Shown piece by piece: positions 3,351-39,913 of a stretch of 54,646 bases of DNA (the first letter of the stretch is position 1; the number at the start of each line of letters is the position of its first letter). The notes beneath the pieces were generated by a model. It made no database searches and was not told the origin of the DNA. It saw only the letters and a list, made by a program, of their open reading frames with translations. Source of the DNA: a virus (taxonomy: Duplodnaviria > Caudoviricetes); the IMG/VR virus record IMGVR_UViG_3300030222_000026, positions 1-54,646 of that record; one strand, written 5' to 3'. The position numbers and the translations under genes are program-made.

Positions 3351-3407
3351 GTAAGCCTCCACGGTTGAGTGGAGAGCGTAAGCATAGGAAGGGCCAAGGG
3401 TCGTCCG

Positions 3408-3773
3408 TCAGGGGCGGAGCCCCTTCCGGTCGAGGTAGGCTTCGTAGAGGCGGATAAAGTCGCCAAGGCGGAGAAGGACGGTGGCGTCGTCCATGGATTG
3501 GCGAGAGCGCCGGTGGATCACTACGGGGGTCTCACCGGGGGCGGCATTGCGGATTGCCTGTGCGAGGAATTTCTCGGGCTCAAGGCGTTCCGTGCGCTTG
3601 GCCTCAATGGCCAGGGAGGGGGTACCGATGAGGTCTGGAGCGCCGACCCCGGGGTTCTCGATGAACTGCGTCGTGAGGCAGCGGCGGTGGACGGAAAGGC
3701 CAAGGGTGGAGGAGAGGTGGGCGCAGAGGTCGCGCTCGAACTGATCGCCCTTGGCCTTGGAGCGCTTGACCAT
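3408..3773 (-). CDS. Holliday junction resolvase-like PD-(D/E)XK nuclease
   Basis: SKAKGDQFER...PDL...IEAKR pattern. Confidence 0.75.
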   Translation of the reverse strand: MVKRSKAKGDQFERDLCAHLSSTLGLSVHRRCLTTQFIENPGVGAPDLIGTPSLAIEAKRTERLEPEKFLAQAIRNAAPGETPVVIHRRSRQSMDDATVLLRLGDFIRLYEAYLDRKGLRP

Positions 3774-4076
3774 TCATTCCTCCATGGCCATGCCGAGCTT
3801 GCGCTTGCACGACTGGCAATAGAACTGCCACTTCGGACGTGGGGTTTTGTCGCCACAGCATGAACAGGGCCTTGACCACATTTGGATTTCAGGGAGTTCG
3901 GCGGCGATGTATTTCGCACCTGTGAATTGGACGATCCGGTTCTTGTGTAGGACACGCTTGCAGGTGTCGGTGCATACACCGATCTCGCGGGCCATGGTGC
4001 TGTACGGGATCTTCATGGCCGAGGCGACACGCAAGAACTGGAGTTGCCCCTCTGAGATGTTCGCGCGGCGAGGCAT
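3774..4076 (-). CDS. GcrA-like HTH plus Zn-ribbon transcription regulator
   Basis: N-terminal HTH (YSTMAREIGVCTDTCKRVL), C-terminal CSCC...FYCQSC; GGAGG RBS. Confidence 0.55.
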   Translation of the reverse strand: MPRRANISEGQLQFLRVASAMKIPYSTMAREIGVCTDTCKRVLHKNRIVQFTGAKYIAAELPEIQMWSRPCSCCGDKTPRPKWQFYCQSCKRKLGMAMEE

Positions 4077-4366
4077 TCGAAATCCTCCAGAGATGGCGAA
4101 TGGCATGTGTTGTGCCACTCGGTGACATCCGTTCAACATCTTGTTGTCCAAAACAGCGTGATCGTCAATGGGCGAAGCCCCGCCCTAAAGCGGGGCGAAG
4201 CCCTCCCGGACGCCTGCTTTAGGCAGAGAGGGGGTCGATGCAGGGGCCTCCCCGGAGCGCCATGCGACGGCCACGGGAGGGGAGACGCGCCTCGGATGTC
4301 ACGGGTCGTGGAAAAGTTGCACACAGACGGCATTTAGATGTTGTTTTCGCTTGACGGATCTGTGTA

Positions 4367-4509
4367 AAATCTCAACCAACCCCCATTGGGGACGACGCCG
4401 CTTGCCTTACGGCGCGGCGTCTGAAGGGGCGGCACACGGAACGTTCCACTCTCCCCTCGAGTGTGCCGCACCGGGAACAGATTGAGGGCGTGGGGGTTGG
4501 TTGAGATTT
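4367..4509. repeat. 143-bp element bounded by a perfect 19-bp inverted repeat, with two internal hairpins
   Basis: AAATCTCAACCAACCCCCA (4367-4385) / TGGGGGTTGGTTGAGATTT (4491-4509); internal stems 4394-4401/4414-4421 and 4429-4437/4461-4469. Confidence 0.9.
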
Positions 4510-4514
4510 CAGCA

Positions 4515-4736
4515 ATGCACAATTTTAAGGCGAAATCCCGTGAAAAACAGAGGGAGCGTGAGCGAATTGCAGCGCTCAACCGCGCGCGCAATCCGGACGT
4601 TGCGGCGCTGGTGGACATCCTGCGCGAGGAAGGGGTCGACCCTCAGGTCAAGTACGTCGGGCCAGTGCGGGAGAGCACGAAGGCACGATTGGCGAGCCTT
4701 CGCTCTGATGAAAATTCCAGTGGATTATCGGACTAG
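4515..4736 (+). CDS. Hypothetical protein (73 aa), opposite to its neighbours
   Basis: MHNFKAKS...RARNPDVAALVDILREEG; no clear RBS. Confidence 0.5.
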   Translation: MHNFKAKSREKQRERERIAALNRARNPDVAALVDILREEGVDPQVKYVGPVRESTKARLASLRSDENSSGLSD

Positions 4737-5045: not shown

Positions 5046-5058
5046 GAGGCCCCCCACA

Positions 5059-5087
5059 AAAAATGCCGCTCGAGTGGCGGCATTTTT
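5059..5087. terminator. Bidirectional intrinsic terminator after the primase gene
   Basis: AAAAATGCCGC-TCGAGTG-GCGGCATTTTT. Confidence 0.7.
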
Positions 5088-5128
5088 CGAAGTGGCAGGA
5101 TTTTAAGTCGTCCCGTGGCTCGCCCGCA

Positions 5129-7153
5129 TTACGGGCGCTTTTCGTACCTCTCAACCCACTCCTCGATGGTGCGGATCGACTTGCCAAGCGCCGCCGCAAT
5201 CTGCGGAACGCTCATGTTTTTCAGGTACATATCGACGAACCTGTCATAGATGGTCTTGAAGCTGAACAGGGATTGCTTCCCCGTACTCAGTTCGATGATC
5301 CGAGCGATGTAGTAGTGCTTCTCCATCAACTCGTCTTCATCGCGCGTCTTTCCCATGCTCACACGCATGAGCATCGTCACCTTCCAGTCGATGCGCCCAC
5401 CCGGCAATTCGTTGTAGATGCGGTCGTGAATGCTCGGAAGCTCCTCGGAACGCGCGTCATGCACACCCCCCTTCTCACGCGCCACATCCTCGTCCTCATA
5501 GAGCAGAGCCGTATAGAGTTGAGTTTCGACTGCATCCAACTGAGACGTCGAGCCCGCATAGGAGCCCAGACCACGGTCGCCCGGCTTGTTGCGGTGGTGG
5601 AGCAGGATGATGCTGATGCCCTTGTTTCGCAGCTTGATGAAGAACTGGTTCAGAGGCTTCCATTGCGAAGCGTCATTCTCGTCCAGTGTAGGGAAAGCCG
5701 AGCGGATCGTGTCGATCACGATGAGATCGGGCCGCACCTTCATGATCATCCGGTACAGCCGCTTCCGGTTCTCCTTGCTGTCCAGCGTCATCGGGACGTG
5801 GCGAGACATGGACGCATTGTAGGTCACAACGTTCTCGACATGGGTCGGTCGCAAGGGGCCGATCAGTTCTGAGTTGTCGTGGATGCGGTTGCGGATCGTT
5901 CGCTTCCCCTCCTCGTAGTTCAGATACAGAGTCCGGAAACGACGCATCACCCTGAACGGGCCAACCCTGCGACGGCCTGCGGCTGTCGCGTGTGTAATCA
6001 GTTGCACGAGAGTCGACTTCCCCTGCCCCGTGTAGCCGCTGATATGGACGATATTGTCCTTCGGGATGATCGGCTCAACGAGAAACTCCGGCTCATAATC
6101 AGCCAGCAGGTCGGAAACCTCAGACAGCGTGTGTAGGTCAAGATCATCTTCCTGCTCAGGCTCTCGAGGTGGCTCCTCCATCGCCGCTGTCGCCGGGTTT
6201 CGGTGTGGTATGTAGTTACCGCATTCATCAAATCGCTCGGGATGGTTCCGGCGCTCCATGTCCTCGACCGACCGGCAGGTCGCACGCCACTCCTCGTCCT
6301 CGAGGCGGTCGACGAAGAAGGTGTCCATGAAGTGCAGGACGCGCTCATCCAGCTTTTCGCCCCAATACCCCGCGCGAACCTGCTCGCTCGCGTACATTAA
6401 TACGCGCTGGTTGCGGTAGTTGCCCTGCCCTGTCGGGATTTTTAGCGTCGCAGAGTAGTTCTCTGCCACATACTGAGAAGTCCGTTCCCATTCGGAACGG
6501 TAGTCGATGACATCGACACCGGTCAGGTCAATCGGACCATCACTGGAAAGGCCAAGAGGGAGCGGGGCGGAGGCCGCGCCAAGATACTCTCGAGGCGTGG
6601 AGTCAAGCGGCCACCCCTCCCACACTGGCCATTCGTCCAGTTCGTCTAGACCGACATCGGTGTCGAAGATCCACTCGTACCCACGAGAAGGGGCGATGAC
6701 CGCATAAGAGCCATCGCCCCGGAAGTCGAGCCCATCGAACTTGGGCCAGTCATGCCCGCGTGAATTACTCCCGGCACGGGGGCGAAACTCCTGCCCGCCC
6801 GGATGCCTGAAAAAAAGGTGCATGCCGTTCTTGGTCTTGGCCCGGATGGGCGACCACACACCGCACCGAAGGCAGAAATCAATCGCCTCCTGATTATCGC
6901 AGTCGACGACAACAATTCCCGACAAGGTGCCCGTGATCAGGGCCAGCTTGACCTCGTCCGGTGGGATACCCTCCCTTTCGGCCAGACATTGCCAACTTTC
7001 GACATCCGCTTCAGTTGGCAACTCTGTCTGGAAACGACGCCACCTGACCATCGCCTTCTTGGTCTTCGGCGAGATCGGAATGACGGAAAAGCCCCGCTCC
7101 AGGTATTCGTGGGCTGCGTAATCAAGAACACCTACCGCTCTGGTTCTCTCCAT
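5129..7153 (-). CDS. Bifunctional primase-polymerase fused to an AAA_25/RepA-like helicase and a C-terminal HTH
   Basis: GIVVVDCD, KTKNGMHLFF, DFRGDGSYAVIAPS; Walker A GYTGQGKS, Walker B LIVID; VPQIAAALGKSIRTIEEW. Confidence 0.85.
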   Translation of the reverse strand: MERTRAVGVLDYAAHEYLERGFSVIPISPKTKKAMVRWRRFQTELPTEADVESWQCLAEREGIPPDEVKLALITGTLSGIVVVDCDNQEAIDFCLRCGVWSPIRAKTKNGMHLFFRHPGGQEFRPRAGSNSRGHDWPKFDGLDFRGDGSYAVIAPSRGYEWIFDTDVGLDELDEWPVWEGWPLDSTPREYLGAASAPLPLGLSSDGPIDLTGVDVIDYRSEWERTSQYVAENYSATLKIPTGQGNYRNQRVLMYASEQVRAGYWGEKLDERVLHFMDTFFVDRLEDEEWRATCRSVEDMERRNHPERFDECGNYIPHRNPATAAMEEPPREPEQEDDLDLHTLSEVSDLLADYEPEFLVEPIIPKDNIVHISGYTGQGKSTLVQLITHATAAGRRRVGPFRVMRRFRTLYLNYEEGKRTIRNRIHDNSELIGPLRPTHVENVVTYNASMSRHVPMTLDSKENRKRLYRMIMKVRPDLIVIDTIRSAFPTLDENDASQWKPLNQFFIKLRNKGISIILLHHRNKPGDRGLGSYAGSTSQLDAVETQLYTALLYEDEDVAREKGGVHDARSEELPSIHDRIYNELPGGRIDWKVTMLMRVSMGKTRDEDELMEKHYYIARIIELSTGKQSLFSFKTIYDRFVDMYLKNMSVPQIAAALGKSIRTIEEWVERYEKRP

Positions 7154-7341
7154 TTCACGTACCCGTTCAAGTCGATAGAGGGAAACTCCCCCTTAAGACG
7201 AGCAATATGCTTGCTCGCCATCCGCCCTCGATTGATCCAGCCATAGATAGCAGGGCGCGTGGTTCCAGTGACACGCGCGACCACGGATGGACCGCCGCAA
7301 TCGGCGATGAGAGCGCGAATGTCGAAGTAGAACATCCCCAT
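7132..7341 (-). CDS. Cro-like HTH protein
   Basis: LIADCGGPSVVARVTGTTRPAIYGW; first gene left of the divergent promoter. Confidence 0.7.
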   Translation of the reverse strand: MGMFYFDIRALIADCGGPSVVARVTGTTRPAIYGWINRGRMASKHIARLKGEFPSIDLNGYVKWREPER

Positions 7342-7355
7342 CTTCCCTTTTCGCG

Positions 7356-7402
7356 TTGACACCGCCGTAACGTCTTATATACACCTAATTGACATCCGAC
7401 AA
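7356..7402. promoter_or_regulatory. Overlapping divergent sigma70-like promoters
   Basis: Plus: TTGACA(7356)-N16-TATACA; minus: TTGTCG(7402)-N17-TATAAG; operator half-site TGACATCC at 7390. Confidence 0.55.
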
Positions 7403-7413
7403 CGGGAAAGGCC

Positions 7414-7920
7414 GTGGCCATGGAAGATGCGTTCGCCGAATTTGCGGATAAAATGTCGGGCCTGAAGGACGGGGATCAGCAGGGGAAGCTGTTCTCCAGA
7501 ACAGATGGCGATCTCGAGATCAAAGAGGGAATGTCAGTCGACGATCTCGCGGACATGTACGAGACGATCTGCGAGCGCTCGAAGATGCTGACGAAGGCGA
7601 AGTCCTACATCAAGGCGTACCTGATGGCTCTCGCCGATGCCAACGGAATACCCGGAGCACCGGGGACGGTTCATGTCACTGGCAACCGAAAGGATGTGGC
7701 CGTCACGAAGCAGGCCAAGTTGGCCTTCGATGACAACGCCGCACTGACCGACATGGCCAATGGGGCGAAGCTGCCCATCCAGCCGAAGCAGAGCTTCGGT
7801 CTGACGGACGCGAAAATCCGCTCCCTCAATGAAACGCTGAATGCCGACGACCTCGTCAAGATCGCGAAGTACGTCAGCGTGAAGGGTGAAAACGTCACCA
7901 TCTCCATCGAAAACAAGTGA
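7414..7920 (+). CDS. Hypothetical replication/recombination-module protein
   Basis: First gene of the Sak4/SSB/exonuclease operon. Confidence 0.7.
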   Translation: MAMEDAFAEFADKMSGLKDGDQQGKLFSRTDGDLEIKEGMSVDDLADMYETICERSKMLTKAKSYIKAYLMALADANGIPGAPGTVHVTGNRKDVAVTKQAKLAFDDNAALTDMANGAKLPIQPKQSFGLTDAKIRSLNETLNADDLVKIAKYVSVKGENVTISIENK

Positions 7921-7926
7921 GGCGTC

Positions 7927-8721: not shown

Positions 8722-8723
8722 CC

Positions 8724-10332: not shown

Positions 10333-10389
10333 CAGAACCTCCCGTGATCTCCCAATTCTGGTGGCAGCGCCCACGGGATGCAATCCGGC

Positions 10390-13300
10390 CTATTCCGTAT
10401 CGCGTGTGTAGTCGATGAAGTCGAGCGTCGATGGGTCGATTTTCGCGGACTGACGTTGTCGGGTTCGCTCAGCCTCTCCCGCCGCCAAATCAACCATCAT
10501 CTCCCGGACGGGCTTCACACCGCCAAGGACGGGCACGCGCTCGGCAATGGAGCGAACGCCACGCCGCTCGGTGGAGTTGCTATCCGGGGTGCGGTCGAGA
10601 AGAGCATCAAGCCCCCCAGAGGCCACGTTGAACGCCCCAACGCCAGTGGAGACGGACGGCCCGAAGAGGGTCGAAGCCACCCTCACCTGGCCATAAGCCC
10701 CATTGTCCGTCTGAGACACGACGTCGTGGATCATCTCGAGGAGAAGGCCGAACCCTGCTGCGTGCGTGAAGCCTTCGACCACCCAACCGGCGTACATGTC
10801 GATGGTCTCATCGTCCATCGGCTCCGACATGAGCGGGTTCCAGTCAGAGAAACGACGCTCTCGAAGAGCAAAATCGGGATCATCCCGCTCGCCACCACGC
10901 CCCTGAACAATGTCCTTCACAGCCAGGGAGCCCATGCCTGCGGCAGGAGCGGCTGTGAGCAGCCACATGGCGCGGCGCAGATCGCCCGTCCCCTTCAGGT
11001 TGCTCGGAGGCTTCTTCCCAAGCATGTCGTAGAGGGCCAGCTTGACGTCATCGACGATGATCTCCTTGGACATCCTCATCATCATAAGGGGGAAGGACTT
11101 GAGTTGGAAGATCATCGCCCCGAGCGGCGTCTGACCCCAGATCGGAATGTCTGCCGGGTTCGGAGCGAAGATGGACTCGTCGGCAAACTTGATCACGGCA
11201 ACACGGGCGGCGTCGCTGTCGGCAATACCGATGGCCTCGTTCGTGTAACGCCCCTCGAGAACATCCGGACTGTCGATCATGGGGGCGCTCCGGTGGGTGA
11301 AGCCCTCCAACCCATAGTTCTTGAGTGTGCGGTAGGCGCGCTTGACCTTCGCGGGCTGCTGGTGGAACGGGACACCATCGACCCAGGCGTCGTGAGCCTT
11401 TTTCTGAGCCGCCTTGAACGTCTCAATGGCGACCGCACCAGCGAAACGACGGTTCACATCCGTCCAGGGAGTCAGGCCAGTTGCGTTGAAAAAGGCGTTG
11501 GTGAAGCGACCATCTGATGCTCCCCACATGTAGGCCAGCCTGTCGTGCAGGATCGACTCCCCCGCGACACCAATGTTCTCCAGCATCTCCCTGTAGACGG
11601 GATCGCTGGCGAAACGCCTGAGCGCCTTCGCATAAGCACTCATGTTGCCAGAGCGGATGAGCGGGAGGACGGGGTCGCCAAGTGAGGTCAGCGTCGTGAA
11701 GCCAAGGAGGGTCACGAGGTTGAAGTTCCGCATGCCACGCGAGAACTTCAGCATGCCCTCATGGTCGGACAGCGTCTTGCGGTTAGACACCTTCATCAAG
11801 CGCTCGATGAAATGGGCCGCGTCGTTGGTGATGAGGTGCGGGTCTCCATCGAAGTCCGAGAGCGCGGCGAGGATCGCCTCGACGCGACGCTCGTAGAACA
11901 ACGACGGCTCCCCATTGGCCTGATCGACTGGCTGGTACTTCATCAGGATATTGCGGGCGACCGGCTCTCCGAGCCCTGGGTCGGCAAGAGCCTCTTCCAC
12001 CTCCCGAATGACCTGAGCCGCCTCCTGCTCCTTCCCCTCGAAGGGCATGTTGAAGGTGTCGAGGAAGACGACCTCCTCCATGTTGCCGCTTTCGTCGCGC
12101 GCACGTTTGGTGGATTGAAACACCTTCTTGGTGGTCAGGAGTTGAACCGCACCTGCTGTGCCATCCTGCATGACCTTCAGGTAGTCATAAGCCCCATGGG
12201 AGCCGATGCCGAAAGTCTCGATCTGGTGGATGCGACGACCAGCCTGATCGTAATACTTCACCATGACGGCCTCGAGGTCGTCTTCGAGGAACTCTCGCAG
12301 GGCCATGCTGGTGTCGGAGTTGTCCAGGCGGATCGCGCGAGAGCCATCAAGGTTCTCGGCTGCCGAGTTTCTGGATGCCCCACGGCCCGGCACCATCAGC
12401 CCTTCACTCTCGTCGTCGAGGATTTTCAGGACAGTGCGGCGAGCAATCTCCTCAGTCTCCTCGCGGCCAAGGGGGTTGCCCTCGCGGAGCGAGGCATCAA
12501 GGAAGTGATCCCGGAGAAGAGACGTGAAGCGCTCGCGGTCCTCGGTCGACTTGTGGATCTTGTGAACGCTCCACAATTGCGGGAAGTAGTCCTTGATGAA
12601 CCCGATGCGGGGGTCGATGCGACGCATGGCATCGTGCGTCCTGGCCAGGTGATCCGCAATGGCCTGAGCCGCACGTTGCTCTTCAGAGGACATGGCGTTC
12701 CAGTTGCGCTTGTTGCGCTGAGGATCGACAGAGCCACGCTGCGACAGCCAGCGGAAAATTCGCTTATGGCTTTCAGGCTGGTCAGCCCCGAATTTCCTCG
12801 TGCCAGCCGCATCCGCTGTTGCGCGACGATACCAGCGATGGAGGGCGTGCTTCACGCTACCGCTCGAGTCAGGGAGCGTGCGCAGGATCTTCAGTGGCCC
12901 CTTGTCCTGAAGCCCACCATGCAGAAGACGGTTGGTGATCTGCGTCGAGCGCTGGAAGTAGGTGTCGAACTTCCCGGCGAGCCAGTGGGCATTGAAAACA
13001 CGGAGCGTGTTGGGGTTCGAGCGGAAGACGCCCTCGGCGAAGTTGCCAATGGCGCGGCCACCGGGGAGCATGTCGAGCATCCCGCGAACAAGGCCACGGT
13101 TGCCGTTGTTTTTCGTAAGGCGAATGACCGCCCTCTGGTCGGCATCCGAAGGCGCGCGCTTGCGGACGAAATTCCCGATAGCATGCTGGACATCGCGCAG
13201 AGGCTCCGCCTTCGAGATCGAGGAAAGGATGATCGTCGCCTTCGCGTCGTCAATGCCAGACGCATCGCCGTCGACCGTCCTGTTCAGGACAGGGCCAGAC

Positions 13301-20589: not shown

Positions 20590-20651
20590 CGGGAGGCTCC
20601 ATCGTTGTGTGATTTTGATGGAGGCTAGGTACGAGACAGAGTCCTGTCGTC

Positions 20652-30651: not shown

Positions 30652-30660
30652 GGCCACCCG

Positions 30661-31842
30661 TCAGGTACGGGTCGACCAGTTCTTGATGTAGGCGTGGACC
30701 TTGTCCTGAAGCAGTTCCAGACCGCACTCGGTCAGGTACTCGTGCTTCACGCCGTCCTCGTCGTTCGCCTGCCGGTTCTCGAGAAGCTGCGTGTCGCGGC
30801 CCTCGAGATAGCGGTAGGTGACATACGGGAAGTCGACGACGATCATCGCCTCGCGCATGCCAGGAACCTGACGGAACTGCGGATGCAGATGGACCATCAG
30901 GTCGCCCGCGAACGTGTTGTAGCGGGTCAGGTTCACGCCATAAGCACCCTGGACGGTGTCCGGGGACCAGCGGTCCTTGCCGTACATCTGGAGGTGATGC
31001 GCGACCTTGTCACCAACGAAGGCGATCTTCTGGGACGAACCGTACTTGAAGATCGTCTGGATGAGTTGTTCGTCGAACTGCTCTTCCGACATCGAGCCAT
31101 CTCCGTCGATGTCGGAGTTGCAGTCGATGACGTTGGTGAGTTGGGTCAGCAGACCGCCAGTGTAGCGGGTCGGCTGCGCCGTGGTGCCATTGGCCTCGTG
31201 CTTGACGCCGAAGAAAAACGCACGCTCGATGTCCGACATGTGGAGCTTGAGGGCCTTGGTCATGGCCTCCTCCTCCTTCGGACCCGTGCGAAGGTACGTC
31301 GATTGCAGAGTGCCACTGACCGAGAAGGCATAGCGGAAGATCTGCGTGTAGTTCGACGCAACCGTCGCATCGAACGTCACCGCAGTCGGAGACGTGCCAC
31401 CTTCCTGAGCCGCATAGCCAGCGACGAAGAGTTCGTCGTTGTCCGTGATGGTGTAGGAGGTGCCGCCGATGTTGCGGGTGACAGTGAGCGTGGTCGCCGT
31501 GGTGTCAGCCGTGACGTGCATGACTTCGCCAGTCGCCGAGTTGACGATCAGAGCGCCAGCGATGGCGTACTTGTTGTCGTCAGACGCGTCGATGGTGAGA
31601 GAGCCAGTGCTGTCGTCGTAGCCAGCGCCGTTGTTGATGGTGAGAACGCGCTCGGGAAGCTCGTCCCGGAAGTTCTTGAACTCCGGGTCGTCGGTGGACT
31701 CGTTCGAGCCCATGGCCAGGAGGGCGTTCAGTGGAGCGTTGCCGTTCGGCTCAAGGAGCGTGAACAGTTCGCGGTAGTTCTTGGGGCGGAAGTCCGTGTT
31801 GAACTCACCAGTGCCACGGAGCCCCTGAATTGCAGCAGGCAT
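30661..31842 (-). CDS. Major capsid protein (DUF5309/SU10-like)
   Basis: 393 aa; NYTQIFR, DIERAFFFG, TGGL, EYLTECGLE; strong codon bias; follows the scaffold. Confidence 0.85.
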   Translation of the reverse strand: MPAAIQGLRGTGEFNTDFRPKNYRELFTLLEPNGNAPLNALLAMGSNESTDDPEFKNFRDELPERVLTINNGAGYDDSTGSLTIDASDDNKYAIAGALIVNSATGEVMHVTADTTATTLTVTRNIGGTSYTITDNDELFVAGYAAQEGGTSPTAVTFDATVASNYTQIFRYAFSVSGTLQSTYLRTGPKEEEAMTKALKLHMSDIERAFFFGVKHEANGTTAQPTRYTGGLLTQLTNVIDCNSDIDGDGSMSEEQFDEQLIQTIFKYGSSQKIAFVGDKVAHHLQMYGKDRWSPDTVQGAYGVNLTRYNTFAGDLMVHLHPQFRQVPGMREAMIVVDFPYVTYRYLEGRDTQLLENRQANDEDGVKHEYLTECGLELLQDKVHAYIKNWSTRT

Positions 31843-31983
31843 GTGCCCACTCCTTCCGATTGAAGGTGGATTACAGGGTTTTGTGCTCTGGCGAAGGCAA
31901 TCGCTTCTCTCGCCGGATCAGTGGACAGCCGCAGCGGCCCTATGGCGGAAATAGCAAGAGGGGTGAAATCTATCGTCCCACCC

Positions 31984-32014
31984 AAAAAAAGAGGGGAGAC
32001 CCGGAGGTCTCCCC
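31984..32014 (-). terminator. Terminator between scaffold and capsid genes
   Basis: GGGGAGACC-TCCG-GGTCTCCCC then TC and T7 on the minus strand. Confidence 0.75.
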
Positions 32015-32053
32015 CAAGTCAGGACAGGGCGGTGTCCTGACGTTAGACGAATG

Positions 32054-33100
32054 TTAGACGCCCGCGCGCTTGGCCATGACGGACTGAGTCAGGCGGTCAA
32101 GGGGGGTCTCCTCGGACGGGCCAGAGGTTGCGCCGCCAGCGGTCGGCGTCGCGCCAATGCCACCAGAGGTGAAGGCTTGGCGGCGCTTCGCGATCTCGCG
32201 AATGCGCTCCATCTCGGGGCTGGCCAGCGTGTTGGCGAAGTCCTTCATGACCTTGGCCGTCAGGTTGATGTCGATGAAGTCGTCCTTCGTGTAGCCACGC
32301 TCGGCGGCAAACATCATGAAATCATTCGCGGCCTCGTCAGGGAGCTTCAGGGCAGCCTGCACACGGTCGAGGTTGTTGGCGATCTGCTGGCTGACGAGAG
32401 CCTGCTGGTTCTGCCCCTGCTGACGCTGAGACGCAGCCGTAGCCTGGGTCATGCCCTGAGCCGCGCCCATCATCCGCTGCATCATCTGCATCATCTGCTG
32501 CATCTGTTGCTGCGTGCGCTGGACGTTCGTGAACATATCCTCATAGCCAGGGGGGAGCGAGTTGAGCGCGTTCTCCTCCGCCCAACGCTGAAGCGCCTGA
32601 ACGTCGGTGGGTGCCGTCTCGGCCCGCTTTTCCTGGGCGCGCTCTGCGTCCGCGCCGAACTGAGGCTGAGGAGACTGGCCGCGCGCAAGATCGAGGAGCT
32701 TGCGCGCCACTGTCTTGGGGTTCTCGTTCGGATTGTTGCGAAGGTAGGCCCCGACAACGTCGAGAACCGGCTTCATCTGGGCGTTCTGGTAGTTCAGGGC
32801 GCGGTAACGGTCGAAGGTCGAGAGGATCTGCTGAGGCGTCAGCTTCTCGGTGTTGCCGTCCGGACGCTTGATCTCGTAGATGATGGCGTCCTCCGCCATC
32901 TTGTCCCCCTCGGTGTCAGGGGAGCCCTGCGCCTCGGCGTTGCCAACAGTCGTGTCAGGAGCGGGTTTGGACGTGTCCAGGTTGGGCTGTGCATCAGGTT
33001 GGGCTGAGGCATCTGCCGGAGCCGCGCCATCAGACGCCCCCAAGGCAGCCGCAGCGACCTGCTGAATGAGGCGGTCCTGATTTTCGACGGGCTTGTTCAT
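32054..33100 (-). CDS. Capsid scaffolding protein
   Basis: Disordered acidic N-terminus, Q/M-rich coil, directly upstream of the capsid gene. Confidence 0.65.
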   Translation of the reverse strand: MNKPVENQDRLIQQVAAAALGASDGAAPADASAQPDAQPNLDTSKPAPDTTVGNAEAQGSPDTEGDKMAEDAIIYEIKRPDGNTEKLTPQQILSTFDRYRALNYQNAQMKPVLDVVGAYLRNNPNENPKTVARKLLDLARGQSPQPQFGADAERAQEKRAETAPTDVQALQRWAEENALNSLPPGYEDMFTNVQRTQQQMQQMMQMMQRMMGAAQGMTQATAASQRQQGQNQQALVSQQIANNLDRVQAALKLPDEAANDFMMFAAERGYTKDDFIDINLTAKVMKDFANTLASPEMERIREIAKRRQAFTSGGIGATPTAGGATSGPSEETPLDRLTQSVMAKRAGV

Positions 33101-33372
33101 CGTGAGCCTTCCTTCGGTCCATTGAGCCTGGCTTCCGTCTCCTCCCGGTCAATCAGGCGGTCGGGAAGACGGAGGAGATTGCGCGCCGCGAACAATACGC
33201 CCCTCGTGTAGTTGCGTTCGTCCTCCGGGAGGTTCGGGTTCATCAGAAGGCGATCCGTGACCCGCTCGATCTCGAGGGCCATGGCCTCGCACATGAGCGC
33301 CCACCCCTTGGAGTCACGAACGGCGCGGATCTCCTCAACACGGCGCGCAGGAGGAAGACGGAGACCGCTCAC
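33097..33372 (-). CDS. Hypothetical protein
   Basis: GTG start overlaps the upstream stop; helical. Confidence 0.6.
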   Translation of the reverse strand: MSGLRLPPARRVEEIRAVRDSKGWALMCEAMALEIERVTDRLLMNPNLPEDERNYTRGVLFAARNLLRLPDRLIDREETEARLNGPKEGSR

Positions 33373-33479
33373 CCTTTCTTGCCCCCCATGGCCTTCTTCG
33401 TGGCCGACTTGCGATCCTGCTCGATGCGGGCGCGACCGTACTTGTCATTGCCGCTCGGCTTCTTGCCACCCTTCTTCAT
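33369..33479 (-). CDS. 36-aa Lys-rich peptide (not in ORF track)
   Basis: MKKGGKKPSGNDKYGRARIEQDRKSATKKAMGGKKG; AGGAGG RBS; 4-bp overlaps on both sides. Confidence 0.6.
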   Translation of the reverse strand: MKKGGKKPSGNDKYGRARIEQDRKSATKKAMGGKKG

Positions 33480-34351
33480 CGGGACGTCCTCCTGAAAAAA
33501 CCGGAAAGCCACATGGCCAGGCGCATGAAGATGCGCGCAATGTAACTCTGCTGGAGTTCCCGCGAAGAGTCGTCCTGCTCGACGGGGCGGCTCTCGATGG
33601 CCTGCTTGAGCGCGTCACGCTCTTCCATTACCTCGGAGAGCTTGCTGGCCATCGCCCTGCGGCGCTTGGCGTGCATCGACTGAAGGCGGTTGAGCGTGAG
33701 CCTGTCGAAGCGGCCAGTGATGGGGAGGTCGGCAGCCTTCTGGAAGCGCTTGATGGCCGCACGGGTCTTCGGGCCAACGATGCCATCGAGAGGGCCAAAT
33801 TCATAGCCTGCCTCCTTCAGGAGGATCTGGCTGTCGAGGGCTTCGCTGTCGGGGCCGAAATCCCAATCGCCCTGAATGGCCAGGGTGGGGAGGCCGCGCG
33901 CCTTGGCCTCCGGAATGACGTCGAAGCAGGGACATGCTTTCAGGTGTTCGTGGGCCTCGATTATGCCGTCACCGTCCCGATCAGGAGAAAGATCGCGATG
34001 ACCGCAGATCACGGAGCCAGGATATTCGGAGGTGAGGCTCTCCAGCAGGTTCCAGAGAGTGGAAACCTGCTCGGGCGTCCGCGTGTCGGACGGCTTCCCA
34101 TTGTCGTCGAGGCCGCCTTCGAGACATACGCCGATGGATGTGGAGTTGTAGCCGGAAACATGCGCGCCGATCTGGTCGAGGTCGCGGCCCTTCTCGAGAG
34201 TGCCATTCCTACGAATGACATAGTGATAGCCGATACCGCTCCAGCCGCGCGCCTTGTGCCAGCGGTCGATGTCGGCAGCGCTCGAGGTCTGGGAGGGCCG
34301 GATGGCCGAGACATGGACGACGATGTAGGAGGTCGTCTTGCGCTTCGGCAT
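33476..34351 (-). CDS. N-acetylmuramoyl-L-alanine amidase (T7 lysozyme-like) with peptidoglycan-binding domain
   Basis: IVVH, GIGYHYVI, GAHVSGYN, GHRDL, KACPCF; DGIVGPKTRAAIKRFQ. Confidence 0.9.
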   Translation of the reverse strand: MPKRKTTSYIVVHVSAIRPSQTSSAADIDRWHKARGWSGIGYHYVIRRNGTLEKGRDLDQIGAHVSGYNSTSIGVCLEGGLDDNGKPSDTRTPEQVSTLWNLLESLTSEYPGSVICGHRDLSPDRDGDGIIEAHEHLKACPCFDVIPEAKARGLPTLAIQGDWDFGPDSEALDSQILLKEAGYEFGPLDGIVGPKTRAAIKRFQKAADLPITGRFDRLTLNRLQSMHAKRRRAMASKLSEVMEERDALKQAIESRPVEQDDSSRELQQSYIARIFMRLAMWLSGFFRRTSR

Positions 34352-34352
34352 G

Positions 34353-34571
34353 TCAGGACTCCTTCCTCGAACGAGCGGAAGGTTTTGAGGGCCGCGAGGG
34401 CTCCTTCTTGGCTTCACTCTCGGCCTGGAGCGCGGAGCGCATGGAGGCGATCTCGCGGTCCTTCATGGAGAGTTGCGCCGCAAGCGTGTTGTTCGAAAGA
34501 ACGAGTTCGCCAATCAGGCTCTTGGCCTGGGCCAACTGATAGGTCAGTTGGCGATATTCTGCGTCTTCCAT
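34353..34571 (-). CDS. Small coiled-coil protein
   Basis: GGAG RBS, heptad pattern. Confidence 0.6.
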   Translation of the reverse strand: MEDAEYRQLTYQLAQAKSLIGELVLSNNTLAAQLSMKDREIASMRSALQAESEAKKEPSRPSKPSARSRKES

Positions 34572-34628
34572 GGGAACTCCATCTGTTGAGATGGAGGGAG
34601 AATTGCGCAGAGTGTGACGGCTGTCGTC

Positions 34629-35141
34629 CTAGAGGGAGGCCGCAATCAACCAAAGTTCGTCGATGCGGGTTTTCGACAGGCCGAGGGCCGCGCCGATCTG
34701 TGCGATCAGTGGATGGTCGCGTTCGTAGGACGTCGCGTACTCCCATTCGATGAGGGCAGCCTCACGCTCGACGGGGTCAGTGATCAATTCAATCTGCTCG
34801 ACAACTTGAGCCTGAGTGATGGACTCCTGCGTGAGCAGGGCCAGGCGGAGTTGGCGGGCGGTGATCTCCGGGTAAACCACTGGAGCGACATAGGGAACCC
34901 ACGAGTTCGTGTCGAAATCCCATGTGTCCAGGGCGCAGTTGGGCGGGCCGGGAACCTCGATGCCGCCTTCGGGGGGCGTTACATCGGGCGTGACCGTTTC
35001 GATGAGGTCAGGCTGAGGAATTTCTTCGCCGGTGTCAGGGTCGGTGATGGGGTCTTGCGGCGTGCGGACGGTGTAGGCGGGAGCCGGGGCGAAGCCGCCA
35101 AGATAAACGCCGTTCGCGTCGATGTAGTATTTTGTAATCAT
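34629..35141 (-). CDS. Tail fibre assembly chaperone-like protein
   Basis: YYIDANGVYLGGF; ITARQLRLAL...IEWEYA...IDELW; follows the fibre gene. Confidence 0.7.
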   Translation of the reverse strand: MITKYYIDANGVYLGGFAPAPAYTVRTPQDPITDPDTGEEIPQPDLIETVTPDVTPPEGGIEVPGPPNCALDTWDFDTNSWVPYVAPVVYPEITARQLRLALLTQESITQAQVVEQIELITDPVEREAALIEWEYATSYERDHPLIAQIGAALGLSKTRIDELWLIAASL

Positions 35142-37552
35142 GCGAAAGCCCTTATGATAATCTTCCATTTTGATGCAATAATACTGCCATAACCGCCCGT
35201 CGTCCAATTGATGATGTCGATTGGGTATGTATCAGAGCCAATTCTGACAACAATATTCGTGCTATCAAATTGGATCGCGAGCCCTCTTGCTGGCCCTTCC
35301 CACAACGAACTCACACCAGGGTTCACAAAGACCTCGTCACCGACAGAATATCCAGAGTCAGCGGAGGTGCACTTGATGGATGCGAGCACTAGCTTCGGCA
35401 CCGCTCCGAGCCCATGCGCGAGCGTCAGGCTCCCGCCGCTGGTGATGGTCTGTTCAGCGCTCTCATAGGATTTCGTGAAGGGGACGGTATCCAGCCCCAA
35501 GCTCGCCAGAAAACCCTCCTTGGTGTTCTTGCGGACGAAGCTGTCGGTGGAGCTATAGAAGATCGTGTCCGAGTTCCGCGTCGTCTGGGTGTGAGTCATC
35601 CAGACGTGCGTGCCTTGCAGATAGCGCCCCGAGATATCCCCCTCGCCGTCCCGCCGAACGAGTGTGTGCGGGTTTTCGGCGACAGAGATAGGCTGGTTCC
35701 CCTCATGCCAGACGGGGTTGTTGTCTACTTCAAGGCCGCCGTAAACAAGGACGATAGAGCCGCTTCCAGGATCAATGCGAACGTTTCCATTGTCTGAAAC
35801 AAGATACAAATCACTGTTGTTAACGGAGCCGAACCCGACATAGCCGAGGCGGGAAATCGAGCCGCCGAGAACCGTCGACCACAAGAACTCAATGTATGGG
35901 TTCGCAAGAGCCGCGCTAGCCGCTCCAGCGTCGATTAGCTGGAGAATATCAGCCCCAGATGTATTCTGAATACGGACGTCACCTCCGGCGAGGTCAAGGC
36001 GAATATTCGCGCCCTCTACATTCAAATCTGAAAATGTGCCAGAGGAGGGAGCCGACTCTCCAATCGCAGTTCCATCGACGGTGCCGCCATTGATGTTGAC
36101 CGCGCCCAACGTCGCCATTCCACTCACAACGATATTCCCATCGACATCAAGCCTTTCAGTGGGAGAGGTCTTGCCAATGGCAAGGTTTCCGCCATTGATG
36201 TAGCTGTCGCCTTGTCCTCGAAAGAACACCTTGGCATTTCCGTCGCCATCGTAAAGGAGTAGGCCCCCGTCATCTGTGCTGCCGGTGTCGCCCATGTAGA
36301 CATATCGCGACTTGTCAGGGCGCGTGATACCTAGTCCAGCGTTTTGATTTTGTTGTACTTCTAACCCGAATTGCGGCGCACCGCTCACCCCAATACCAAA
36401 CCTCCCCGTGCTGGCATCCCATCGAGCGCCTACCGTTGATCCGTCGTCTCGATAAAGAAGAATGTCACCACCAAGCGTCGCGCCACCACTTACCGCAATG
36501 GTGTCAAAGGTTGATGCCCCGAGCGCGCGAACTCCGCCATCAATCCTAAGGTGGACAGGAAAAGTGCCCGAGGCGTTCCTGGCTCGAATGTTCCACTCGC
36601 GATTATTGCCATCGTAGTAAGTCTGTAAGTGACTACCGTCATCGTATGAGCCGCTGTACGGCTCGATTTCGAAATAACCGCCAGTGACCGTGGGGCCGTA
36701 AGCCGAGAGGAAGTCCGAGGCATGCTCGCCGTCGAGCGTGTCAGCGTCGAGGCCGGAAGACGCCCCATCGTTGCCAGAGTGCCAGATCGTGTGGCCGTCG
36801 TAGGTCGAATTGGTGATCGTCACGCCGTCGATGCCGCCGCCCGTGATCGCAGCCGTCGCCACGTTGCTCATCGAAATCCACGAGGAGCCCGTGTAGACGC
36901 GCATCTCTGGCATCGTCGTGTTGAAGTAGAGCGCGCCAGCGGTCAGAGGGTCGCCATCGTTGTCGAGAGCAGGGTCGCTCGCCTTGGGGCCAAGGTAGCG
37001 GTCGTCGAAGTCATCGTACGATGACGCAGCAGCAAGGGCTGAAGCCGCCGCATTCGTCTCGCTACCAAGAGCGGCAGAGGCAGACGAAGACGCAACATTC
37101 GCATGGCCAAGGGCCGTGGAGGCAGAGCCAGAGGCGTTCGAAGCGTAGGTCTGCGCGTCGTCGCGGTGAGATTGCGCGGAGTCGCGGTAGGAAAGAGCCA
37201 GGTCGCGCGCCGCCTCGGCGGCGGCTTGGGCATCCTCGGCAGCCAACTGAGCCGCCTCGGAGGCAGTCACGAAGGCTTGGAAATCCGTCGAAGTGACATC
37301 CTCCCATCCCGCGTTCGGGTCGACAAAGTCGCCAACCCTGACCTGAAGGAGGCCGGGGGTGGAGGGGGACTCGCGGAACTCGAAAAGTTCGGAGCGAAAC
37401 TCACCGTCGCTTGGGTCGAAAAGGTCTCCAAGGAGATCGGCAAGGGAGCGACCGCCAATCTCGGCAGCCTCAAGGTAGGTGTCGAGGACGTGGTTGCCCG
37501 TGTTCTCGGACAGGAAACGGAGTTGCTTACCCCGAACCTTCGTTTCCGTCAT
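35138..37552 (-). CDS. Tail fibre protein
   Basis: Ala/Ser coil, FDDRYLG...GALYFNT, WHSGNDG..SGLDADTLDG, LAHGLGAVP. Confidence 0.85.
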   Translation of the reverse strand: MTETKVRGKQLRFLSENTGNHVLDTYLEAAEIGGRSLADLLGDLFDPSDGEFRSELFEFRESPSTPGLLQVRVGDFVDPNAGWEDVTSTDFQAFVTASEAAQLAAEDAQAAAEAARDLALSYRDSAQSHRDDAQTYASNASGSASTALGHANVASSSASAALGSETNAAASALAAASSYDDFDDRYLGPKASDPALDNDGDPLTAGALYFNTTMPEMRVYTGSSWISMSNVATAAITGGGIDGVTITNSTYDGHTIWHSGNDGASSGLDADTLDGEHASDFLSAYGPTVTGGYFEIEPYSGSYDDGSHLQTYYDGNNREWNIRARNASGTFPVHLRIDGGVRALGASTFDTIAVSGGATLGGDILLYRDDGSTVGARWDASTGRFGIGVSGAPQFGLEVQQNQNAGLGITRPDKSRYVYMGDTGSTDDGGLLLYDGDGNAKVFFRGQGDSYINGGNLAIGKTSPTERLDVDGNIVVSGMATLGAVNINGGTVDGTAIGESAPSSGTFSDLNVEGANIRLDLAGGDVRIQNTSGADILQLIDAGAASAALANPYIEFLWSTVLGGSISRLGYVGFGSVNNSDLYLVSDNGNVRIDPGSGSIVLVYGGLEVDNNPVWHEGNQPISVAENPHTLVRRDGEGDISGRYLQGTHVWMTHTQTTRNSDTIFYSSTDSFVRKNTKEGFLASLGLDTVPFTKSYESAEQTITSGGSLTLAHGLGAVPKLVLASIKCTSADSGYSVGDEVFVNPGVSSLWEGPARGLAIQFDSTNIVVRIGSDTYPIDIINWTTGGYGSIIASKWKIIIRAFA

Positions 37553-37937
37553 GGGAGGCAGCCTCTCGACGCATGATTGCCTTCACCTTCGCGGATGTGA
37601 AGGAAGCGAAGGTCTTCTCGATGTTCGTGTCGACTAGCGCCACGAGGTTTTTCAGGTCGTCCTCGCGAGCCGCCAGAAGGGCGGCGTGACGGTCAGCCTG
37701 GAGACGCTCGAGGTCGTCGATGCGGGACACAATGGCTTCAAGGGAGTGCGAGGTGTCACAGGAAAGGGTAGAGAGGCGGTCGCGCAAACGACGGACATTC
37801 TCAGAAAGAGAACGCTCCGAAGAAGCCAGGTGGCCACGGATCTCCGCCGAAAGATCCCGGCGAAGCGTCGTGGCAACGGAACTCAGGTGCTTCGCGACAG
37901 AGGCGTCGATAAGAGCCTCGAGTTCGTCGTCGGTCAT
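37527..37937 (-). CDS. Hypothetical coiled-coil protein
   Basis: Overlaps the portal stop. Confidence 0.55.
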   Translation of the reverse strand: MTDDELEALIDASVAKHLSSVATTLRRDLSAEIRGHLASSERSLSENVRRLRDRLSTLSCDTSHSLEAIVSRIDDLERLQADRHAALLAAREDDLKNLVALVDTNIEKTFASFTSAKVKAIMRREAASHDGNEGSG

Positions 37938-39853
37938 TGCGGCCTCGCAGGGATCAGGTTTCCGCGCTCAACCTGGCGCTCAACCTCTTCGGCAGGCTTC
38001 ACGGTGGCGCGGCCAGAGGAAATGCCGCGCTCCTTCTCCATCAAGGCCAACTGTTGAGAGGGGGTGAGGCCCTGCTGGAGTTCGTCCTTCGAGATGCGGA
38101 AGCGGTCAAGGTCGGTTACGCCCATCGAGCGGATAGCCTCCTCGGCAATGCGACCGATGTTGTATTCCATCATCAGACCCGTCTGGGAGAGAACCTGAAG
38201 CATGTCGATCCAGGTCTGCGCATTGCGCGTGGGCTCGATGGGAAGCGTGCCGTCGATGACAAGGTAGTCGATGTCCCCCTGAAGATCCTTCGTGACATCG
38301 AAGTCGAGGTAGCCATCCTCAACCATCGAGGCTAGCTGGGTGGGCATCGAGTCCTCGGAAATGCGGATGGAGCCCTGATAGGAAAGCGCATCCTGAATGT
38401 TCTGGACCATCATGCGGACCTGAGGGCGGATCGTGGTCGCGGACGTGATGCGGGACAGGACGCCAAGCCGCTGGGAGCCAAGCTGGGTCAAGCGCTGGAT
38501 TTCCGTGGCCGTACGAACGTCGGCGGTCGGCATGCCCTGCTGCGCGTCAGAGGCAGCGGACGTGCGCTGCTTCAGATCGGAGAGAAGCTGGATGTCCTGC
38601 CAATGGCCACGGGTGATGTCCGGAATGTCAGCGATAAAGACGCCCTCGCCGGGCTCTGAGCCCTGGAGCGTCCGGACAACGCCGTAAGGGTTGCGGTCGA
38701 TGAGGTCGGGGACGGAAACGCGCGTCGGATCAACGAAGATCAGGTTCGACATCGCAGCCTGAACGTTGTCCACACGACTGCGAAGAAGCCAGGTGGCGAT
38801 CTCGTGCAGCGGCATCAGGATGTCGTAGAGAGACTGGCCGAAGGTCTTGTGGACGTCCTGGAAAAGAGAGCCGATGACGACAGGGAATTGGCGTCCGTAC
38901 GGGTTCGCCTGACAGCGGATGACAACGTCTTCGTCGATGATCGTGACGACAAGGTACATGGACTGGATGGCAGGCATGCCGATCTGCCAGCCCTGAACGA
39001 CAAGCCAAACCTCGTCGACGACCCGGTTCGATCCGATTTGCCAGTGACGGGTCGTCTCGCCGGTCTGAGCCGGGTTCTGGGGGTTGATCGTGAGACCTTG
39101 GCCCTGCTCCTGCGTGAAATGATGCGCCTTCCAGGCCGCGCGGTTCGGAGTTGTCGAGCGGCGGCGGAGCGCTGGGTACTTCGCCAGCTTGGGGTAAAGG
39201 CCAGTGCGGACAAGAGCCTCGTAGGAGACGTAATCGGCGAAGCCGATGAAGTTCATATCCTCCCAATCGCCCCAATTGACGCGCGGATCAGGGAAGAAAC
39301 GGCGAGGATTGAAGTTGATGATGCGGTTCTGGTTGGCGGTGGAGTCCCACAGGATCTTGGTGGGGGCGCAGCCGTAGCGAATGCCGTCCAGGAGTTGTTG
39401 GGCAACGCGAGCCTCACCAGCCGTGCGGCGCATCTGCTGGTGCAGAATGCGCTCGATGATCAGAGAGGGCATGCGCGACTTGCGGTTCAAGCCCTCAAGC
39501 TGGAACATGGGGTTACGGCCAGTGAGGGCCGCCATCATGTAGGTGAGGACCGTGTCGCTGATCGCGCGGGTGTCCGGGATCACCGCCTTCTCGGTGAAGT
39601 CGGTCGCGTCCGGATCGACATAAACGTCATGCGCGCGGTCGGCAGCGTCCCACGAGGCGTAGCGCTTCGAGATCTGAGCAGCCGACATCTCCATGCAGGC
39701 ACGGACATAGTCGACGATGGAGCGCTCCTGCTCGTCCGTCAGAAGATCGGAAATGTCCTGATACGAGGCCAGAGCATCAAAATGCTCGGAGAGGTCGGCG
39801 ATCATCTCGCTGGGAGAGGTGATCACGTCGCGCTTGTAGGCTGGCTCCGTCAT
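37934..39853 (-). CDS. Portal protein
   Basis: 639 aa after TerL; QQG...RTATE motif. Confidence 0.8.
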   Translation of the reverse strand: MTEPAYKRDVITSPSEMIADLSEHFDALASYQDISDLLTDEQERSIVDYVRACMEMSAAQISKRYASWDAADRAHDVYVDPDATDFTEKAVIPDTRAISDTVLTYMMAALTGRNPMFQLEGLNRKSRMPSLIIERILHQQMRRTAGEARVAQQLLDGIRYGCAPTKILWDSTANQNRIINFNPRRFFPDPRVNWGDWEDMNFIGFADYVSYEALVRTGLYPKLAKYPALRRRSTTPNRAAWKAHHFTQEQGQGLTINPQNPAQTGETTRHWQIGSNRVVDEVWLVVQGWQIGMPAIQSMYLVVTIIDEDVVIRCQANPYGRQFPVVIGSLFQDVHKTFGQSLYDILMPLHEIATWLLRSRVDNVQAAMSNLIFVDPTRVSVPDLIDRNPYGVVRTLQGSEPGEGVFIADIPDITRGHWQDIQLLSDLKQRTSAASDAQQGMPTADVRTATEIQRLTQLGSQRLGVLSRITSATTIRPQVRMMVQNIQDALSYQGSIRISEDSMPTQLASMVEDGYLDFDVTKDLQGDIDYLVIDGTLPIEPTRNAQTWIDMLQVLSQTGLMMEYNIGRIAEEAIRSMGVTDLDRFRISKDELQQGLTPSQQLALMEKERGISSGRATVKPAEEVERQVERGNLIPARPQ

Positions 39854-39913
39854 GATGGTCCCTGCCGTGAAAAGTCAGACGCGTTATCGCGCGGCAGGGA
39901 AAGAGCGGTCGTC

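Follow-up and report, generated by a model that had tools for sequence, protein, structure and literature searches.

The locus described here raises the question why the ribosome-binding sites of several phage genes are covered by inverted repeats when the same genes are preceded by copies of the heptamer GGACGAC, a putative promoter element. The genes lie in the IMG/VR virus record IMGVR_UViG_3300030222_000026, which was analyzed in its entirety (54,646 bases, class provirus, rated 94% complete) and is referred to below as the window. The isolate most similar to it is Roseobacter phage CRP-810, whose portal and capsid proteins are 67% and 78% identical, respectively, and whose gene order is the same. 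We propose that the hairpins would hide the ribosome-binding site in RNA that reads through from upstream genes, and that transcripts initiated at the GGACGAC promoter would bypass them by starting within or past the 5′ arm. This promoter-bypassed occlusion, a variant of the logic of T4 gene e, appears well supported in silico, and we give it a probability of about 0.6.

Hairpins over the Shine–Dalgarno sites

A sequence-only reading of this DNA had named four inverted repeats that cover the next gene's ribosome-binding site. All four were found where they had been placed, and the 3′ arm of each carries the Shine–Dalgarno (SD) sequence, either GGAG or AGGGA (Table 1). The list was incomplete, since a fifth repeat (42248–42275) had been overlooked. 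The hairpin genes are all on the minus strand, and the order along the gene strand is an anti-SD 5′ arm, a loop, the SD-bearing 3′ arm, 5–7 nt and the start codon. Read on the plus strand, the arms of two of the hairpins are CTCCATCT (34577–34584) and AGATGGAG (34589–34596), and TCCCTGCCG (39859–39867) and CGGCAGGGA (39892–39900), respectively.

When folded alone, the four hairpins had z-scores of −3.6 to −5.6 relative to shuffled sequences, and in the minimum-energy folds of the long leaders (~100 nt) the respective hairpin is present in all four cases. Perfect stems of at least 6 bp with a 3′ arm that reaches into the SD zone were present at all five motif-associated, SD-led starts; the remaining starts of the window had them in 4 of 51 cases (Fisher p 3e-5). 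Counting the terminator, capsid and leaderless sites described below as motif-associated as well, the numbers were 5/8 and 4/48. The five SD hairpins all lack the downstream T run of an intrinsic terminator, and no terminator-like site with a T run was found in the stretch from the upstream gene to the hairpin at these junctions.

Table 1. Positions of motif copies, hairpins, terminators, predicted start sites and genes in the window.
Feature	Position	Strand	Details
GGACGAC	42289–42295	−	before 172-aa open reading frame (ORF); strict GGACGAC-N19-TACCCT match 42264–42295
GGACGAC	39908–39914	−	overlaps TAG stop of large terminase; before portal; −10 candidate GATAAC 39883–39888, poor
GGACGAC	35199–35205	−	TATTGC at +19..24; ATG 35168 of 179-aa ORF 6 nt past hexamer
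GGACGAC	34623–34629	−	overlaps TAG stop of 179-aa ORF; −10 candidate AATTCT 34599–34604
GGACGAT, one mismatch (capsid copy)	31972–31978	−	TATTTC at +19..24; ~99-nt leader to capsid ATG 31842
GGACGAC	20646–20652	−	overlaps TAG stop of 709-aa gene; −10 TAGCCT 20622–20627
GGACGAC	5107–5113	−	downstream of primase; −10 candidate AAAAAT 5082–5087, inside terminator 5′ arm
GGACGAC	3400–3406	−	1 nt past TGA stop of RusA-like resolvase; −10 TACGCT 3375–3380
Hairpin before 172-aa ORF (ATG 42241)	42248–42275	−	5′ arm CTCCAA 42275–42270; 3′ arm TTGGAG 42253–42248; −5.0 kcal/mol, weakest
Portal hairpin	39859–39900	−	5′ arm UCCCUGCCG 39900–39892; 3′ arm CGGCAGGGA 39867–39859 with SD; ATG 39853; −20.4 kcal/mol
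Hairpin before 72-aa gene and amidase operon	34577–34596	−	5′ arm CUCCAUCU 34596–34589; 3′ arm AGAUGGAG 34584–34577; ATG 34571; −10.0 kcal/mol
Hairpin before 3399-aa giant gene	20597–20623	−	5′ arm CUCCAUC 20623–20617; 3′ arm GAUGGAG 20603–20597; TTG 20589; −8.1 kcal/mol
Hairpin before 116-aa gene and 446-aa endolysin-like gene	3357–3374	−	5′ arm CUCCAC 3374–3369; 3′ arm GUGGAG 3362–3357; ATG 3350; −8.1 kcal/mol
Intrinsic terminator	31992–32015	−	between 348-aa gene and capsid promoter copy; 10-bp stem and T run; −21.2 kcal/mol
Terminator hairpin	5058–5087	−	5′ arm 5087–5077; loop 5076–5070; 3′ arm and T run 5069–5058; then ATG 5045; −14.3 kcal/mol, z −4.9
Predicted start	~42257		after 5′ arm 42275–42270
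Predicted start	~39876		after 5′ arm 39900–39892
Predicted start	34592		inside 5′ arm 34596–34589
Predicted start	20615		after 5′ arm 20623–20617
Predicted start	5075		in terminator loop 5076–5070
Predicted start	3368		first nt past 5′ arm 3374–3369
Plus-strand block	43076–54646	+	tyrosine integrase (53708–54646) at end; CobS/CobT-like ATPases
Long minus-strand block	42760 down to 10390	−	structural and lysis genes
Large terminase	39914–41494	−	
Portal	37934–39853	−	
Amidase	33476–34351	−	
Major capsid	30661–31842	−	
Tail-fibre protein	within 42760–10390 block	−	
Giant protein, 3399 aa, TTG start	10390–20589	−	no Pfam match except a short E3_binding match; no PHROG or PDB sequence match
Second minus-strand stretch		−	primase 5129–7153; RusA-like resolvase 3408–3773; endolysin-like 446-aa protein 1667–3007

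The GGACGAC motif and its putative −10 element

As a bare heptamer counted on both strands of the window, GGACGAC is not enriched (23 copies versus 16 ± 3.9; 23 was reached in 4 of 100 shuffles). On the gene strand, the observed and expected numbers are 19 and 8.9 in the window, 16 and 3.2 in relative G002, and 11 and 2.1 in relative G003, and enrichment on this strand was seen in all five full genomes examined. Outside gene bodies, five copies are present in the window where 0.63 would be expected (P 5e-4), and each of the five full genomes shows enrichment there (P 2e-7 to 6e-3). The motif usually abuts the upstream stop codon, with a stop-to-motif distance of −1 to +4 nt at 15 of 16 intergenic sites.

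The motif is also conserved in position. It is found within ~100 nt upstream of the portal gene in 16 of the 18 viral-contig loci for which upstream sequence was available, the remaining two having GGACGAT, and one or the other form precedes the portal in all 10 such genome-contig loci, with labels including Poseidonocella, Kistimonas, Endozoicomonas, Rhodospirillales and others. Conservation at the portal junction extends across relatives of 38–65% GC, and all nine orthologues of the junction preceding the giant or internal-virion gene have the motif.

A scan of offsets from the motif at the 16 intergenic sites gave a peak at +19/+20 only, where nAnnnT was present at 13/16 and TAnnnT at 9/16 sites; the other offsets mostly gave counts of 0–3, with a minor peak of 5 at +14. 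The strict combination of motif and −10 pattern occurs three times in the window (0.11 expected), and TAnnnT is present at +19 or +20 in all nine giant-junction orthologues. When ACGACn is read as a −35 hexamer, the spacer is 17–18 nt, and the sites have the two-element layout of a sigma-70-type promoter, with elements ~17 bp apart and a TAnnnT −10. The −35 region does not resemble TTGACA, of which the GAC core alone is matched, and a strict sigma-70 scan called none of these sites. Because of the −10-like hexamer at fixed spacing, the gene-strand and intergenic bias and the family-wide conservation, we interpret GGACGAC as the putative −35-region element of a conserved, family-wide promoter, a reading that is supported in silico. 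We know of no description of the motif; a literature search for GGACGAC as a phage promoter gave, among the matches listed, irrelevant macrophage and primer items only.

Start sites predicted from leaderless geometry

The position of the start site was derived from leaderless genes of the relatives, independently of the hairpins. Of the 70 de-duplicated sites that have a −10-like hexamer, nine are followed exactly 6 nt past the hexamer by a start codon (ATG or GTG) that opens an ORF of at least 60 codons, and the neighboring gaps account for zero or one site each. The genes that start 6 nt past the hexamer have no SD. The portal gene has this geometry in CRP-810, G002 and L010, which are among the nine, and further in L043, L044, L048 and L050, and the only case in the window is the ATG at 35168, which follows the motif copy at 35199–35205. 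The natural reading would be that these mRNAs are leaderless, which places the start 7 nt past the end of the hexamer, corresponding to 31–32 nt past the motif. What is read directly from the DNA comprises the repeats, the conserved motif, the constant distance from the motif to the −10 hexamer and the leaderless arrangement of start codons.

With this rule, the predicted start falls within or past the 5′ arm at all five hairpins, as the sequence-only reading had asserted for its four, and the predicted +1 is a purine at five of six sites (Table 1). In most of the family's lineages, the portal gene has the leaderless arrangement, and gene callers that require an SD may misplace starts of this kind.

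Accessibility of the SD in long and short leaders

Folding long against short 5′ leaders had been suggested as a check, and the outcome agreed with the proposal: over the five sites, the predicted probability that the SD is unpaired was 0.001–0.024 in the long leaders and 0.32–0.56 in the short ones. In these models, the SD of the longer transcript would thus be paired with the upstream arm, as in the T4 cases discussed below.

Two other places in the window resemble or overlap these sites. A GCACGAC variant (22828–22834, minus strand) with TACGGT at +18 precedes the 709-aa gene, and an 8-bp repeat, ACCGCCCT/AGGGCGGT, lies over the SD zone. It was considered as a sixth switch and rejected, because, in the long and the short fold alike, the SD is paired to coding sequence farther downstream. 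The fifth hairpin, together with its motif copy at 42289 and an in-frame internal ATG at 42241, is enclosed in a single open frame of 345 codons (41723–42760, minus strand) that has a Cys-rich, zinc-ribbon-like stretch in its N-terminal half. This frame may represent a pair of genes, or one gene with isoforms of two lengths.

Hairpins in related phages

The junction upstream of the giant gene allowed the hairpin to be followed through nine orthologues. With the long leader, the probability of an unpaired SD is at most 0.016 in seven of the nine, and with the short leader it is at least 0.47 in all of them. The arms are CTCCATC/GATGGAG in the window and CTCCAGT/ACTGGAG in most relatives, which amounts to two compensated pairs, and L041 has a different arm that includes G-U pairs. 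The 5′ arm is found at offsets from +13 to +36 past the motif, abutting or overlapping the −10 hexamer and at or before the inferred start. Since both the sequences and the positions of the arms differ among relatives, they are not simply inherited, and, the 5′ arms being at non-homologous positions, a sequence alignment would not bring them into register. In the G003 lineage, the portal is preceded by a hairpin with unrelated arms (ACCACC/GGTGGT) in an equal geometry.

As for covariation, another check that had been suggested, the two compensated pairs are what the giant junction offers, and at the 3357, 34577 and 39859 hairpins fine covariation is limited by the nearest relative having 78% portal identity. 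Over the five genomes, the probability of an unpaired SD was below 0.05 at 7 of 24 promoter-associated starts compared to 13 of 258 other starts (Fisher p 5e-4, from sites that are non-independent).

Motif copies associated with terminators

Two copies of the motif are associated with intrinsic terminators, each consisting of a stem and a T run, as had been proposed for both. The terminator reported at 5059–5087 is real, spanning 5058–5087, and the predicted start at 5075 is in its loop; the terminator is present in the long fold (z −3.3) and missing from the short fold. The capsid copy, GGACGAT at 31972–31978, does lie just past a terminator, at 31992–32015. Downstream of the capsid gene in CRP-810 and G003, the −10 hexamer lies inside the 5′ arm of a terminator, matching the 5107 site of the window, and G002 has a similar layout there, in which a strong hairpin lacks a T run.

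Proposed mechanism

In the proposed mechanism, the minus-strand structural and lysis genes would be served by a family-specific promoter, GGACGAC-N18/19-TAnnnT, from which transcription would start 7 nt past the −10 hexamer. At five promoters in the window, an anti-SD arm of 6–9 nt, located within the spacer, the −10 element or the start region, would pair with the SD of the first gene. Read-through RNA would have both arms and an occluded ribosome-binding site, whereas locally initiated RNA would be without all or most of the 5′ arm, leaving the site exposed. At 5058–5087, where the start would be in the terminator loop, read-through RNA would terminate and promoter-initiated RNA would continue. 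At 35199, the start would coincide with the ATG, giving a leaderless mRNA and no SD for read-through RNA. The start sites, the folds of the RNA in vivo, the effect on translation, its timing and the protein that reads GGACGAC are the predicted components of this scheme. The claim of the sequence-only reading that the portal, lysin-operon, hydrolase-operon and giant-protein genes are translated only from late transcripts is likewise a prediction, and we regard that reading as partly supported.

A number of observations count against it. The −10 candidates are weak at three window sites, GATAAC (39908), AATTCT (34623) and AAAAAT (5107). Whole-leader z-scores are modest (−1.0 to −2.4), the long fold of the 42289 site has a z-score of −0.09, and in this 61% GC genome the probability of an unpaired SD is below 0.05 in the long context for 10 of 56 genes. 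The short leaders are not fully open, with probabilities of 0.38–0.42 at the 3357 site, 0.47 at the 20597 site and 0.32 at the 42289 site, and the short leader of the giant gene can form an alternative hairpin of −8.8 kcal/mol over GAUGG and the UUG start. The device had been described as genome-wide, which is true of the window, where it is found at 5/5 SD-led promoter-proximal genes, but not of the family: outside the window, of 22 short-leader genes that are SD-led and promoter-proximal, six have a hidden SD, five of these being the giant-protein junction, and the SD leader of the portal is without a hairpin in G001, L046 and L049. Furthermore, GGACGAC-class promoters precede the portal, the hydrolase operon and the giant gene and would be the sources of most read-through into them, so that three of the five sites offer no obvious selective reason to block its translation. 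The early-versus-late rationale known from T4 is plausible for the 5107 and 3400 promoters alone, which lie downstream of the primase and RusA genes. At the other three, the benefit may be that the yield of each gene is tied to its own promoter.

On a wider scale, we offer more tentatively, and as the less probable case, that CRP-810-type phages use modular promoter-gated translation. The first gene behind each GGACGAC-N18-TAnnnT promoter of the structural and lysis module would then be expressed solely from transcripts of its own promoter, through any of three exchangeable designs: leaderless initiation at +1, a hairpin that occludes the SD and has its 5′ arm in the promoter, or initiation of the transcript within a terminator. 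The motif would be read by a factor conserved across phages with record labels of Alpha-, Beta- and Gammaproteobacteria. The primase operon begins with the gene of a 69-aa protein (7132–7341, minus strand) that is present in all four full relatives and has only sub-threshold Cro/YdaS/helix-turn-helix (HTH) matches; this Cro/YdaS-like protein, common to all five genomes, may be a candidate for the motif reader. A second protein, of 165 aa and the GerE/LuxR HTH type (53194–53691, plus strand), also matches sigma-70 region 4, adjoins the integrase and is present in CRP-810. It was rejected as a universal motif reader because it is absent from G001, G002 and G003, and is probably linked to lysogeny.

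If the mechanism is true, it would provide the first described promoter and a predicted transcription map for the globally distributed CRP-810-type marine phages, and the T4 trick of tying translation to the 5′ end of the transcript would be a general, independently evolved design able to serve an entire structural module. The starts are predicted to within a few nucleotides, and CRP-810 is in culture together with its CHUG host (PMC11288001).

Alternative explanations

We considered the possibility that both the promoter and the hairpins are real, but that there is no switch between isoforms, the hairpins instead tuning or uncoupling translation of the first gene in all transcripts, or serving RNA stability or processing. 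The folds of the short leaders still pair part of the SD at the 3357 and 20597 sites, and most read-through RNA would stem from promoters of the same class, both of which fit such a role. Ribosomes could also act on the hairpins: the portal 5′ arm begins just 13 nt past the stop of TerL, within possible reach of a terminating ribosome, and at 42289 the upstream frame is open through the hairpin, so that ribosomes could melt it. However, the 5′ arms of the 3357, 20597 and 34577 hairpins begin 28–33 nt past the upstream stop codon, which by the size of the ribosome footprint is outside the reach of a terminating ribosome and too far for coupling. In 9/9 giant-junction orthologues the 5′ arm is at or upstream of the inferred start despite a 23-nt shift in its position, a constraint that bypass predicts and that general tuning does not need. 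As for processing or stability, the stems are 6–9 bp, whereas substrates of RNase III are far longer, and, given the inferred start, the arm would be outside the primary transcript and could not shield its 5′ end. We therefore regard a function without isoform switching as unlikely, though it is the alternative that survives best.

GGACGAC could also be an asymmetric protein-binding site at gene ends, similar to a stoperator, at which a repressor would block elongation in lysogens, the hairpins being unrelated to it. Such a role would suit a motif that abuts or overlaps the upstream stop (−1 to +4 nt at 15/16 intergenic sites) and has one orientation relative to transcription, in a provirus that has an integrase and a GerE-type HTH protein. 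A roadblock site would not be expected to keep a constant distance to a TAnnnT hexamer and to leaderless start codons, and a stoperator-like element would combine an immunity-repressor function with a lack of promoter geometry, which is not what was found. In G002, which is rated 100% complete and bears terminal repeats, the motif is most abundant (16 copies), and there is no match to an integrase, GerE or sigma region 4; the abundance of the motif without lysogeny genes argues against a repressor site used in lysogeny only. We consider this explanation improbable.

Least probable of all is that the repeats arose by chance in a GC-rich genome with frequent CTCC and GGAG words in the neighborhood of its gene starts: although SD-zone stems of at least 6 bp also occur at 4/51 other starts, 10/56 genes have a paired SD in their predicted long folds and the fifth hairpin is weak, chance is at odds with the 5/5 frequency at motif-associated starts, with hairpin-only z-scores of −2.6 to −5.6, and with the recurrence of SD occlusion at the giant junction by different arms in relatives of 44–59% GC. 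Promoter-bypassed occlusion of the ribosome-binding site is thus the reading that we prefer.

The phage and its other genes

CRP-810 is described as defining a family of 251 uncultured genomes, and the words promoter, terminator and RNA polymerase are absent from the main text of the paper in which it is described (PMC11288001). Judged by its core genes and the synteny that it has in common with CRP-810, the window belongs to this family, and we take it to be a complete temperate phage of the CRP-810 type. Counterparts of 22 of the 56 window proteins were found in all four full relatives, in conserved order. A nucleotide search with 8 kb of the window against the phage collection gave no matches, and the closest relative in a scan of metagenomes had 78% portal identity, with none nearer. 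Single-protein scans with the 709-aa protein in viral contigs and with the portal in genome contigs also gave no matches and were replaced by alignment queries. The portal relatives in genome contigs (L043–L055) are 57–66% identical and come from records labelled Kistimonas, Endozoicomonas, Poseidonocella, Brevundimonas and Rhodospirillales, and from several metagenome-assembled genomes (MAGs). The CRP-810-type family may reach well beyond marine Alphaproteobacteria, although the labels of the MAGs may be unreliable. There were no Rfam matches at gathering score across the whole window, and a tRNA scan of the window found no genes. For window positions 31001–41000, no public sequencing run and no RNA holder were listed.

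The counterpart of the 3399-aa protein in CRP-810 consists of internal virion protein D and large hypothetical proteins. The idea that it contains a virion RNA polymerase of the N4-like or crAss-like kind has no support from Pfam, PHROG or PDB sequence matches. The 116-aa first gene of what had been called the lysin operon has no holin-like features.

The plus-strand early genes have repeats of their own. Three copies of a 21-nt box, GTGTCGCAnAnTGTGACATCC, are present on the plus strand (0 expected), at 44783–44803, 46619–46639 and 53133–53153, each before an early gene, one of these genes being GerE-like; the box is a candidate operator or early-promoter element. CACAAGGA occurs eight times (1.35 expected) between 43060 and 51997, always on the plus strand and in seven of eight cases just upstream of a start codon; it is a common ribosome-binding context of the early genes, unlike the GGAG-type SDs of the minus-strand genes. 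The primase operon and the plus-strand AAA/nuclease operon diverge from an intergenic region (7341–7420) that contains TTGACA-like and TATATA-like words on both strands, and the strict sigma-70 scan made no call there.

Comparison with known systems

The T4 precedent that had been invoked for genes e, soc and I-TevI is as claimed: in these genes and in gene 49, helices that sequester the ribosome-binding site are described as being bypassed by late promoters (PMC3014915). The window resembles these genes in that the SD, the start codon or both are predicted to be paired with an upstream arm in longer transcripts, and in that the putative promoter lies within the DNA encoding the 5′ arm, so that its own transcripts would be without the arm. 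The 3357–3374 hairpin additionally parallels T4 lysozyme in that it precedes a peptidoglycan-hydrolase operon downstream of replication genes. There are also considerable differences. The window phage belongs to an unrelated, temperate family and has a heptamer in the −35 region together with a TAnnnT hexamer, compared to the T4 late element TATAAATA. The hairpins are found at 5/5 SD-led promoter-proximal genes, compared to a few scattered genes in T4, and coexist with leaderless and terminator-embedded versions at the same type of promoter. Upstream transcripts would come mostly from the same promoter class, and the system is known here from sequence alone.

In the middle promoters of T4, a MotA box at about −30 is combined with a sigma-70 −10 element. 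The putative GGACGAC promoters likewise join a non-canonical −35-region box to a −10 hexamer of the housekeeping type, and this likeness suggests that an accessory factor may read the GGACGAC box. The sequence of the box is different, and no MotA- or AsiA-like genes were identified.

At the stoperators of cluster A mycobacteriophages, such as the gp71 sites of L5, the repressor blocks elongation in lysogens. GGACGAC shares with them the many asymmetric copies in one orientation, at or overlapping stop codons in the short intergenic gaps of a temperate phage. It differs in that its distances to a −10 hexamer and to start codons are constant, and in being abundant in a relative without an integrase match.

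Leaderless mRNAs are found in both bacteria and phages, an example being lambda cI transcribed from PRM. The leaderless genes of the relatives, and the gene at 35199 in the window, similarly have an ATG at the inferred +1 and no SD upstream. What sets them apart is that, at a single type of promoter, the leaderless start seems to alternate with two other designs, as illustrated by the portal gene, which is leaderless in most lineages, but SD-led and preceded by a hairpin in the window and the G003 lineage.

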